Below, in pieces: positions 55,401 through 58,400 of a DNA stretch of 64,000 bases. The stretch spans positions 3,820 to 67,819 of the forward strand of contig DATFPH010000199.1 in the NCBI GenBank assembly GCA_035264905.1, given 5' to 3'. Origin of the DNA: Thermoanaerobaculia bacterium. GTDB lineage: Bacteria > Acidobacteriota > Thermoanaerobaculia > Multivoradales > UBA5704. Both the position numbers and the translations under genes were made by a program. The notes under the pieces were generated by a model. It saw only the letters and a program-made list of their open reading frames with translations. It ran no database searches and had not been told where the DNA came from. The stretch's first letter is position 1. Each line of letters opens with the position of its first letter.

Positions 55401-58400
55401 GGTTCGCGCCGCGTCCCGCCTCCCAGTCGAAGCGGTCGAGCAGAACGCGCTCGGCCTGGCCCGCCGGTACCACGTCCTCCAGATGGCTCTGGGTGAGGAG
55501 GATTGACATGCCGGCGTCCTCCAGCATGAAGTCCAGGCGCTCGCGCGGATAGCCGGGATCGAGCGGCACGTAGGCCGCGCCCGCCTTGAGCGTGGCGACC
55601 AGCGCCACGACCAGCTCCAGCGAGCGCTCGGCGGCCACCCCAACCAGGCTCTCGGGGCCGGCGCCGAGGCGGCGCAGCTGGCGCGCCAGCCGGTTCGCGC
55701 GCTCGTCGAGCTGGCGGTAGGTCAGCTCGTTCCCCTCGTAGGAGACGGCCACGGCCTCCGGCGTCCGCTCGACCTGCGCCTCGATCCACCCGTGCAGCAG
55801 GGTCTCGTTCCGGTAGGCCGCCGCGGTGTCGTTCCAGGCGAGCGCCACCTGGTGCCGCTCGCCCTCGCTCAGCCAGGCGAGGCGGGAGAGCGGCAGGTCC
55901 GGCTCGGCCGCGGCGGCGGCGAGCAGGTTTTCCAGGTGCCCGGCCATGCGCACGGGCGTCGGGGCGTCGAACAGGTCGGTGCTGTACTTCCAGGTGCCGA
56001 GCCAGCCGGACTCGAGCGGCGCCATGGCGAGGGCGAGGTCGAACCGCGCCGTGCCGAGGTCGATCTCGCGCGGCTCGAGCGTCAGCTCCGGCAGCTCCAG
56101 GCGCCGCAGCGGCACGTTCTGCTCGACGAAGAGGACCTGGAAGAGCGGCGTGCGCGAGAGGTCCCGGCCGCCGCCGAGCGCGTCCACCAGGGTCTCGAAC
56201 GGCAGATCCTGGTGCGCGTACGCGGCGAGCGCCGTGGCGCGCACCCGGTCCAGCAATTCGCGGAAGCTCGGGTCGCCGGAGGCGTCGATGCGCAGCACGA
56301 GGTTGTTGATGAAGACGCCGATCAGGTCCTCCAGCTCGCGCCGGTTGCGTCCGGAGATCGGCGTGCCAAGCACCAGATCCTCCTGTCCGGTCGCGCGGTG
56401 GAGGAGGGCGGCGAAGCCGGTGAGGAGCGCCATGAACGGCGTGGCCGCGCGCTCGCGCGCCACCTCGGCCAGGCGATTGGAGAGCGCCGCCGGCACCGGC
56501 CGCTCATGGTGCGCGCCGCGGTGCGAGAGGACCGCCGGCCGCGCCTTGTCGGTGGGCAGCTCGAAGACCGGAGCTCCCGCCAGCCGGTTGCGCCAGAACG
56601 CCAGCCGCGCCTCCAGCGCCTCGCCGCGCAGCCACTGCCGCTGCCAGATGGCGAAATCGGCGTACTGGAGCGGCAAGGCCGGCAGGGGCGCGGACGATCC
56701 CCCCGCAAGATACAGAGCGGTCAGATCGCGCACGAACACGCCGAGCGACCAGCCGTCCGCCGCGATGTGGTGCCAGGAGAGGACGAGGCCATAGGTGTCC
56801 GGCTCGCTCCCCCCTCTCCCGGTGGAAGGGGGGGCGATGGGAGAGGGGGCCAGGGGGTGAGGTCCCCGCACGGTCAAAGCCGCGCGCAGGAACGGCCCGT
56901 GCTCCAGGGAGAAGGGGAGACGCGCCACCTCGGCCGCGATCCGCTCCTCCTCGATCTCCTGGAGATCCGGCGGCAGCGCCGCGAGGTCGCAGACCGGGAG
57001 GGCGAGCGGCGTGGGTGGGGCGATCTGCTGCACCGGCTCGCCTCCGGCGCTCCTGAAGACCGTGTGCAGCGCCTCGTGCCGCCGCACGATCGCGTCCAGG
57101 GCTGTGCGAAGGGCCATGCCGTCGAGCCGCCCGGTGAGCCGCAGGAAGGCGGCGATGTTGTGCACCGGGTTGTCGGGATCGAGCTGGTGGAGGAACCAGA
57201 GGCGGCGCTGCGCGAACGACAGCGGGACGTCCGTGATCCGCCACGGCCGTCCGGCGAGCGGCGGCGCCTCGGGGATCGCGCCGCCGACCGAGCCCGTCAG
57301 CCCGTCGAGCAGCTCGGCGAGAGCGGCGAGGGTCGGCGTGCTCAGCAGGCTGTCGAGCGGCAGCTCCACGCCGAACGTCTCGTTGATGCGCGAGACCATC
57401 TGCGTCGCCTTGAGCGAATCGCCGCCCAGCTCGAAGAAGTTGTCCCGGATGCCGGCGCCGCGCCCTTCGAAGACCTCGCGCCAGATCGCGGCGAGCCGCT
57501 CCTCGGTCGGCGTCCGCGGCGCCTCCGCGGGAGCCCCGGTGTCCTCACCCGAAGTCCACGCCTCCAGCGTCTCGAAGCGCCCGGCCAGGAAATCCGCCCG
57601 GCAGGCGCGGCGGCGCACCTTGCCGCTCGACGTCTTGGGCAGCGCGCCCGGCTTGATCAGGGCGACCGCGTGCACCGGCACCTCGTGCTCCAGCGCCACG
57701 GCGCGGCGCACGGCCTCGACCACGCCGTCCAGCTCGCGCCGCTGGCTGCGCTCCACCTCGTGGACGATCACCAGCTGCTCCTCGCCCTCCACGTCGACCG
57801 AGAACGCGGCGCCGCCGCCGGCCCGCAGCGCCGGATGGCTGCGCTCCGCGGTCAGCTCGACGTCCTGCGGATAGTGGTTGCGCCCGCGGATGATGACGAG
57901 GTCCTTGACGCGGCCGGTGACGAAGAGCTCGCCGTCCGCGAAGAAGCCGAGGTCGCCGGTCCGCAGCGACCGGTCCTCGCCCGTGCCGAACGCCTCGGCG
58001 CTCGCCTCGGGGCGGTTCCAGTAGCCGGCCGCGACGCTCTCGCCCGTCACCCGGATCTCGCCCACCTGCCCCTCCGGCAGGACCGCGCCGCTCTCCGGAT
58101 CGACGATCCGCACCTCCTGCTCCAGCCAGGGCCGGCCGCAGGCGACCAGCGCGCGGGAGGACTGGCCCGCGCCGGTGGGCTCGACCACGTTGCGGCTCAG
58201 CGCCTCGGAATGGACCAGGCGCACGCCGGCGCCCTCTCCCGGAGCACCGCCGGTGACGAAGAGCGTCGCCTCCGCCAGGCCGTAGCAGGGATAGAACGCC
58301 TCGGCGCGGAAGCCGTAGGGGGCGAACGTCGCGGCGAAGCGGTGCAGCGTCTCGGCGCGCACGGGCTCGGCGCCGTTGAACGCCACCTTCCAGGAGGAGA

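Follow-up and report, generated by a model that had tools for sequence, protein, structure and literature searches.

The window, a stretch of 64,000 nt from contig DATFPH010000199.1 of a Thermoanaerobaculia bacterium (assembly GCA_035264905.1, positions 3,820 to 67,819), carries a nonribosomal peptide synthetase (NRPS) gene with a 60-nt palindromic repeat in frame in its first condensation domain, C1. The 60 nt are probably one non-coding unit of the BoxC/PIT/TM_ECO repeat type, inserted in a β-hairpin turn of C1 and tolerated there as a loop. An earlier note on this DNA had described the repeat in frame in C1, and both the sequence and the coordinates proved to be as described. The features of the locus are the following.

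46456-59262, minus strand: host NRPS gene, 4268 aa, reading frame uninterrupted, G+C content at third codon positions (GC3) 0.94
55888-57222, minus strand: condensation domain C1, host of the insert, about residues 681-1125; Pfam Condensation match, interrupted by the insert
56806-56865, minus strand: in-frame repeat copy in C1, residues 800-819; 93% identical to 62221-62276 over 56 nt
56752-56772, minus strand: catalytic motif HHIAADG, residues 831-837, intact
56810-56820, plus strand (the strand of the G-rich motif): C-rich hairpin arm CCCCCTCTCCC, equal to the first TM_ECO block CCCTCNCCC (PMC4666352)
56821-56838, plus strand: loop 1, 18 nt, GGTGGAAGGGGGGGCGAT; only 3-6 nt in the E. coli type
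56839-56849, plus strand: first G-rich arm GGGAGAGGGGG, which pairs with the C-rich arm
56853-56862, plus strand: second G-rich block GGGGGTGAGG, set off from the first arm by the 3-nt linker CCA; matches the third TM_ECO block GGGNGAGG(G)
62221-62280, plus strand: intergenic copy 1, inverted with respect to the NRPS copy, 5.4 kb from it and its closest relative
62325-62382, minus strand: intergenic copy 2, degenerate; forms with copy 1 an inverted doublet spanning 62221-62382

The host gene

The Pfam matches in the open reading frame (ORF) at 46456-59262 comprise four AMP-binding, three condensation, four carrier and one sulfotransferase domain, and the motif positions give the order FAAL-T-C1-A-T-sulfotransferase-C2-A-T-C3-A-T (A, adenylation; T, carrier; C, condensation). 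Residues 1-670, preceding C1, form a FAAL-type adenylation domain and a carrier domain. C1 is the first condensation domain but comes after this fatty-acyl loading pair and is not an N-terminal starter; a stand-alone starter role was considered and rejected, the domain order placing FAAL-T ahead. Alignment with homologs showed that C1 keeps HHIAADG and the remaining conserved columns. An exact look-up of the NRPS product found no identical protein on record.

The repeat and its copies in the window

The insert consists of 3 x 20 nt, C-rich and then G-rich, and is stop-free in five of the six frames. In its NRPS frame it encodes a Pro/Gly/Ser-rich segment of 20 residues. The minus strand, 56865-56806, reads GGACCTCACCCCCTGGCCCCCTCTCCCATCGCCCCCCCTTCCACCGGGAGAGGGGGGAGC, and the plus strand at 62221-62280 is nearly identical. 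The repeat arms 56810-56865 and 62221-62276 (56 nt, 93% complementary) are one element in opposite orientations; the identity estimated by eye as about 90% was measured as 93%. A second pair of arms, 62222-62276 and 62325-62379, is 84% complementary over 55 nt with 48 nt between. The third copy is indeed present as an inverted copy, but the hairpin that had been ascribed to it is not: its arms have decayed to CCCTCCCCC / GGGAGAAGG, and the clean CCCTCTCCC/GGGAGAGGG stem is absent.

The core 10-mer CCCCTCTCCC occurs five times in the window against 0.70 expected, and none of 100 shuffles reached five. A 10-mer match at 25830 was examined and discarded as a copy; it is a lone GGGAGAGGGG within a glycosyltransferase gene, with no partner arm. 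The relaxed pattern CCCTCNCCC-N3-30-GGGNGAGGG-N3-8-GGGNGAGG found only the NRPS copy and intergenic copy 1 in the window, with 0 expected. Altogether the 64 kb hold three copies of the element (0 expected), and related metagenome-assembled genomes (MAGs) hold several copies each. The intergenic doublet folds as a long DNA hairpin of -67.2 kcal/mol (z = -6.56) and alone stands out from shuffles. Single-hairpin stability was rejected as a sign of function, with z = -0.95 for the NRPS copy and z = -0.16 for intergenic copy 2.

Identity and spread of the repeat family

Holder et al. (2015) defined the "intrastrand triplex motif" TM_ECO as CCCTCNCCC N3-6 GGGNGAGGG N3 GGGNGAGGG, known earlier as BoxC and PIT (PMC4666352). 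Judged by its sequence blocks, the 60-nt element is a long-loop member of this BoxC / PIT / TM_ECO family (PMC4666352). The plus strand at 56812-56862, CCCTCTCCC...GGGAGAGGG...GGGTGAGG, matches the three published blocks (their Table 1) in 9/9, 9/9 and 8/8 positions; the ninth base of block 3 is T. The second loop has the 3 nt of the TM_ECO definition (GGGAGAGGGGG-CCA-GGGGGTGAGG) if each stem is taken to include its two extra G. The second G-rich block at 56853-56862 would, from its sequence, be the proposed third strand of a purine-motif triplex.

A family scan was made with the pattern CCTCACCCCCYGNCCCCCTCYCCC and one genome per species, and gave at least 139 copies at at least 120 loci. Among the matches listed, the hosts are Acidobacteriota, Chloroflexota, Gemmatimonadota, Planctomycetota, Armatimonadota, Bacteroidota, Proteobacteria, Spirochaetes and Melainabacteria. 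The plan CCTCACCCCC-YGN-CCCCCTCTCCC-loop-GGGAGAGGGGG is common to all 139 listed copies, with a loop of 4 to about 45 nt that varies in sequence. The listed Acidobacteriota copies have long C-rich loops (17-22 nt) and often stand in inverted pairs like 62221-62382; by this sequence pattern the NRPS element is a long-loop variant typical of Acidobacteriota. Rfam gave no matching family, either for the whole window at the gathering threshold or for 61900-62700 at E <= 5, where only chance miRNA-like matches appeared.

The likeness to BoxC/PIT/TM_ECO extends from the three-block plan, with nearly the same blocks CCCTCTCCC ... GGGAGAGGG-NNN-GGGTGAGG, to several copies in each of the related MAGs, frequent inverted pairs, no transposase found in the window or among recurrent neighbors of the listed copies, and loci that differ among close relatives. 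E. coli K-12 has 23 TM_ECO copies, "always located intergenically", with five inverted pairs and no transposase link, and TM loci are unusually variable among E. coli strains (PMC4666352). The window element differs in four respects. Its loop 1 is 18 nt where that of E. coli TM_ECO is 3-6 nt; its stems are two G/C pairs longer beside the linker; the described TM_ECO hosts are Proteobacteria and Cyanobacteria, whereas those found here are Acidobacteriota and many other phyla; and the C1 copy is intragenic, unlike the K-12 copies. Both other window copies are intergenic, and the NRPS copy, inside an ORF, is the exception.

Insertion into the C1 hairpin turn

An empty site is present in the ortholog L001, which has about 80% nt identity to the window on both flanks and is shorter by exactly 60 nt. 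The addition of exactly 20 codons claimed for residues 800-819 thus agrees with the ortholog gap, and a presence/absence comparison of orthologs, which the earlier note had proposed as a check, came out in favor of insertion, with exactly 60 nt missing from L001 and the segment not conserved in 13 homologs. At the junction the best homolog, P0001 (a Thermoanaerobaculia MAG, 76% identity over C1), reads LTVRAADDHGLSLSWHH; the window reads LTVR and 20 extra residues before homologous sequence resumes. The segment is missing from 13 of 13 aligned homologs and, as had been noticed, from the enzyme's own C2 and C3. A second protein search with 161 residues around the insert returned two distant matches and no further alleles.

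The insert ends 11 residues before HHIAADG, close to the ten or so residues from the catalytic His first given. Across C domains this stretch is nearly invariant in length: of 82 C domains (79 metagenome loci), 80 have a spacing of 17 residues between the upstream PFxL...R motif and HH, and C1 of the window has 37. The NRPS copy is most similar to the intergenic copy 5.4 kb away (93%), and the best copies in other genomes, among those listed, have 83-91% identity. The direction of transfer was from repeat into gene, since the family spans many phyla.

The state of C1

An AlphaFold model of C1 built with 68 sequences has a mean predicted local distance difference test score (pLDDT) of 92.1 and a predicted TM-score of 0.90. 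Confidence falls only in the insert (query residues 131-150), to pLDDT 52-56. Modelling C1 had been suggested as a check, and the predicted disorder is restricted to the insert in a domain of otherwise high confidence. In the model the insert is the loop of a β-hairpin between strands 123-130 and 154-162, the second of which ends at both His residues. The TM-score to the Txo2 structure 6p1j is 0.84, and C domains of teixobactin, tyrocidine and DhbF synthetases give 0.81-0.84; a sequence alignment with 5u89 has a clean 20-residue gap at the insert. At the level of sequence and model, C1 has the attributes of a C domain: it keeps HHxxxDG and, in the model, the two-lobed chloramphenicol acetyltransferase-like fold.

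The ratio of nonsynonymous to synonymous substitution rates (dN/dS) was calculated between the window and L122, a 94%-identical ortholog. It is 0.134 for C1, 0.104 for FAAL-T, 0.203 for A1, 0.134 for the remainder and 0.159 for the whole aligned region. On these sequence ratios, C1 is as constrained in its evolution as the other parts of the enzyme. The insert would thus be a disordered, surface-exposed loop in a C1 that presumably still works, and it appears to be a tolerated passenger, neither an adaptation nor a sign of gene decay. The proposal of the earlier note, an invasion of the ORF by a repeat that has since been tolerated as a loop, is supported by the empty site, the multi-phylum family, the confinement of model disorder to the insert and the dN/dS of 0.13.

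How the unit may have moved, and points that weigh against insertion

An intergenic-type triplex-motif unit would have entered the DNA encoding the C1 β-hairpin turn ahead of the HHxxxDG strand. The likeliest route would be either copying from a unit close by while a structure-prone site was being replicated or repaired, or the action of an enzyme in trans; local copying is suggested because the NRPS copy is closest (93%) to its neighbor 5.4 kb away.

Several observations weigh against this account. The first loop, at 18 nt, is outside the 3-6 nt of the TM_ECO definition, and the TM_ECO triplex, stable in vitro, was undetected in vivo in E. coli (PMC4666352). The hairpin of the NRPS copy, at -35 kcal/mol, has no extra stability over same-composition shuffles (z = -0.95). 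Comparison of the filled (window) and empty (L001) sites showed no target-site duplication. The NRPS singlet has no terminal inverted repeats either, so it lacks both marks of a MITE (miniature inverted-repeat transposable element). No transposase was found by Pfam in the 39 ORFs of the window, which leaves the mechanism to inference; the matches were to glycosyltransferases, ABC transporters, toxin-antitoxin genes and Mrr. When the 1066 ORFs near the 139 listed copies were clustered all against all, no recurrent mobilizing enzyme emerged, the recurrent neighbors being common families (ABC ATPase, GGDEF response regulator, adenylate cyclase, kinase and glycosyltransferases). No independent contig spanning 56806-56865 was found, and the insert is thus known from a single assembly. 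The activity of C1 is deduced from sequence constraint and the model.

A second allele at the same turn

The contig L122 (Ga0190274_10000020, a 263-kb metagenome contig) has 91-94% nt identity to the window across 7.4 kb. Its sister NRPS ortholog carries, at 3361-3531, a different in-frame insert in this C1 hairpin turn. Compared with the empty site it adds 159 nt or 53 codons, GGHRGSPPTVETPRGASP...GDAPRGVSTVGG, and it is built of a pair of inverted arms of 31 nt, CCACTGTAGAGACGCCCCGTGGGGCGTCTCC, both of them GTAG-tagged palindromes in the classical repetitive extragenic palindromic (REP) form. Global alignment of the L122 and window inserts is uninformative. Their best local match, 17/18 nt in opposite orientation, scores 32, where shuffles had a mean of 21.3 (sd 3.7, maximum 37).

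L076, a Holophagales MAG, has identical 31-nt REP arms as part of a MITE of about 243 nt (4326-4568) with 17-nt terminal repeats ATAGGCGCTAACTTACC. This MITE is inserted into a triplex-motif copy with a target duplication of about 12 nt, CCCCCTGGCCCC. Copies of the triplex-motif family can therefore be insertion targets. REPs themselves are known insertion targets of insertion sequence (IS) elements (PMC3184786).

REP/REPIN elements, mobilized by RAYT, resemble the window element in being short GC-rich palindromes found as singlets and as inverted doublets with long hairpins, mostly extragenic and without target-site duplication. The L122/L076 element has CTGTAG and a hairpin, whereas a GTAG (or CGTC) tag is absent beside the stem in all three window copies. 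The window element thus lacks the REP/REPIN tag, and no RAYT gene was seen in the window.

Two alleles suggest that the C1 hairpin-turn site is unstable or permissive. A tentative explanation is that the turn is a recurrent target with fast loop turnover, either because the hairpin-turn codon attracts structured repeats or because a triplex-motif copy served as a landing pad for other mobile repeats (REP doublets, MITEs), which entered it and later took its place. The unrelated 159-nt GTAG-tagged REP pair, in frame at the same turn at 91-94% nt identity, points this way, as do the rarity of inserts at a spacing otherwise held at 17 residues in 80 of 82 C domains and the L076 MITE, which carries the same REP arms, is nested in a triplex-motif copy and has the duplication of about 12 nt. 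The hypervariability of TM loci between E. coli strains (Holder et al., PMC4666352) and the attraction of IS elements by REPs (PMC3184786) are consistent with it. However, the known alleles are only two filled and one empty, L122 has no clear triplex-motif remnant, the 17/18 nt match being within the shuffle range, and two independent insertions, selected for one tolerant loop, would look alike.

The pair of inserts also bears on whether the 60 nt are kept for a function, as a loop in interdomain contacts or as a DNA or RNA structure with an effect on how the 12.8-kb gene is transcribed or translated. In-frame inserts at this turn are indeed kept in both sister lineages, a strong hairpin can form from the element, and triplexes of its family have been seen in vitro. 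Such a function is nevertheless improbable: the 20- and 53-residue inserts are unrelated, with no common peptide function apparent, the next ortholog (L001) does without one, and the model has low confidence for the loop. PIT elements had no promoter or terminator activity in the earlier work as cited by Holder et al. (PMC4666352).

Assembly support

Three near-identical contigs cover parts of the window. L201 (ERZ27257125, 99.74% identity) covers 57013-63998 ungapped, with the doublet included, and stops 148 nt short of the NRPS copy. L202 (JGI 3300010039, 99.83%) covers 56921-62190, so that its two ends lie 56 nt from the NRPS copy and 31 nt from the doublet. L203 (99.995%) extends over 35708-54701. 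With L202 bounded by both repeat loci, these repeats seem to break short-read assemblies, and contig breaks at both loci fit a real, hard-to-assemble repeat.

The same ends could be taken to mean that an assembler threaded the repeat into the NRPS gene. The contigs L201 and L202, from two other assemblies of nearly the same strain, break off shortly before the insert, at 57013 and 56921, L202 also stops 31 nt from the intergenic doublet, and the exact NRPS product is not on record elsewhere. An artefact is still highly improbable. The insert is exactly 60 nt, in frame, with flanks in register with the orthologs; at only 93% identity to the nearest copy it is not a collapsed or duplicated read path; the independent 263-kb contig L122 also has an insert at this position; and breaks beside GC-rich structured repeats are expected if the repeat is real.

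That C1 is dead or decaying, or the gene a pseudogene, is highly improbable, for although the insert occupies a hairpin of near-invariant length and the catalytic His is 11 residues away, the 4268-codon frame is open with a GC3 of 0.94, HHIAADG and other conserved columns are present, the dN/dS of 0.134 is like that of FAAL-T (0.104), A1 (0.203) and the remainder (0.134), and the predicted fold outside the insert has high confidence. The suggestion of an inactivated starter C domain finds no support either, C1 following FAAL-T, keeping HHxxxDG and being under the same constraint as the rest.

In-frame copies in other genes and known precedents

At least eight of the 139 listed family copies lie in frame in real genes. 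Such calls were based on an open frame spanning the element, coding-like GC3 on both sides and a Pfam check, and were made without empty-site controls. The copies are the following (PKS, polyketide synthase; AT, acyltransferase; ACP, acyl carrier protein).

L104 (Longimicrobiaceae), 6336-6374: in-frame copy in an NRPS A domain, between motifs A2 and A3
L078, 1650-1749: in-frame doublet in a PKS AT-ACP linker
L117, 6319-6372: in-frame copy in a Ser/Thr kinase activation segment, directly after the DFG-equivalent motif
L011: in-frame copy in a HemN-like radical SAM enzyme
L010: in-frame copy in a TIR/SEFIR-NTPase-TPR protein
L090: in-frame copy in a DUF255 protein
L059: in-frame copy in a DUF2298 membrane protein
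L025: in-frame copy at ORF residues 438-456, bridging an apparent HisC-HisB fusion or read-through

In-frame small repeats were already known from Rickettsia palindromic elements (RPEs) and others (PMC10969869, PMC3184786). The NRPS copy shares the features of an RPE: it has intergenic relatives, keeps the frame, is stop-free, is absent from orthologs and lies in a constrained host. Both are palindromic non-autonomous repeats that stand in frame in a functional, unrelated gene and are translated as a fold-compatible segment which orthologs lack. RPEs, however, are about 105-150 bp with a conserved peptide (PMC10969869, PMC3184786), whereas the window element is 60 bp, mostly intergenic, encodes only a compositionally biased Pro/Gly/Ser sequence and has no sequence relationship to RPE. 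A further parallel is the MITE insertions in cyanobacterial NRPS/PKS genes, where a small non-autonomous repeat also lies within a megasynthetase gene. Those in microcystin synthetase, as cited in PMC10969869, disrupt the gene and abolish production; the NRPS insert differs in being in frame in a host domain under purifying selection.

The earlier note had called the case unusual. It is a real in-frame case, but that word has to be qualified, given the precedents and the at least eight in-frame copies among the 139 listed. The case is thus a real, tidy instance of a known phenomenon, with a repeat family that is already described. What it adds is the reach of the family across phyla, the recurrent in-frame copies and the three-allele C1 site.

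Triplex-motif (BoxC-type) repeats have for some 30 years been regarded as purely intergenic, and their spread and function have gone unexplained since the 1990s. The present data extend the family beyond Proteobacteria and Cyanobacteria and contradict the strictly intergenic idea. For the BoxC-type family the locus gives a dated, base-exact insertion event, and three alleles (empty, triplex-motif unit and REP doublet) with a likely donor 5.4 kb away make a system for studying repeat movement. For NRPS engineering, the turn 11 residues upstream of HHxxxDG accepts inserts of 20 and 53 residues and should be useful for tags or probes. For annotation, Pro/Gly-rich segments of the "PHPPAPSP...GEG" type, in proteins or in small hypothetical ORFs, are recognizable as repeat-derived.

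A broader conjecture, put forward as doubtful, is that triplex-motif repeats are regularly translated across many phyla and that their intragenic copies are unstable landing pads for other repeats, so that one turn cycles through unrelated loops within a few percent divergence. If true, this would make the repeats a general source of new loops in large enzymes, NRPS and PKS among them.

Surroundings of the repeat copies and other features of the window

The intergenic doublet sits in a 1-kb convergent gap, with a MacB-type permease gene (59429-61909) on one side. On its other side are a small gene for a ribbon-helix-helix (RHH) protein (62421-62651) and then the carrier-thioesterase (T-TE) end of a second NRPS (62931-63998). 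The RHH gene, on the minus strand, is of the CopG type (PF01402, E = 2.5e-7) and has the upstream NRPS with its TE end on one side and the doublet on the other, in a stretch that looks lower in GC by eye. Directly upstream of the doublet, at 61998-62220, are four GC-rich hairpin units GGAGGGC-N6-GCCCTC spaced about 63 nt apart. In a Holophagales MAG (L020, 1253-1929, compared with 61377-62280 of the window) a family copy lies about 180 nt downstream of a MacB-type permease homolog. The intergenic position beside this permease gene may be old or favored.

A Phd/YefM antitoxin and PIN toxin pair (45708-46459, minus strand) starts at the stop codon of the NRPS gene and is followed by a Mrr-type restriction endonuclease gene (44857-45672, plus strand). 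As these adjoin the NRPS gene, the synthetase is flanked by mobile-type genes.

Within the NRPS gene a 9-nt tandem unit (CCGACCGAT / CCGTCCGAT / CGGTCCGAT) is repeated three to four times in frame in two adenylation domains, at 50380-50420 and 54664-54700 on the minus strand. It yields 12 residues and PTDRSDPSD, immediately ahead of the GARLYRTGD motif; A3 is without it. The sulfotransferase domain of the enzyme (PF13469, E = 1.9e-29; residues 1807-2018, 53209-53844, minus strand) lies between the module 1 carrier and C2; tailoring domains placed in line like this are uncommon. At 31455-33383 a second Sulfotransfer_3 domain is joined to a glycosyltransferase.

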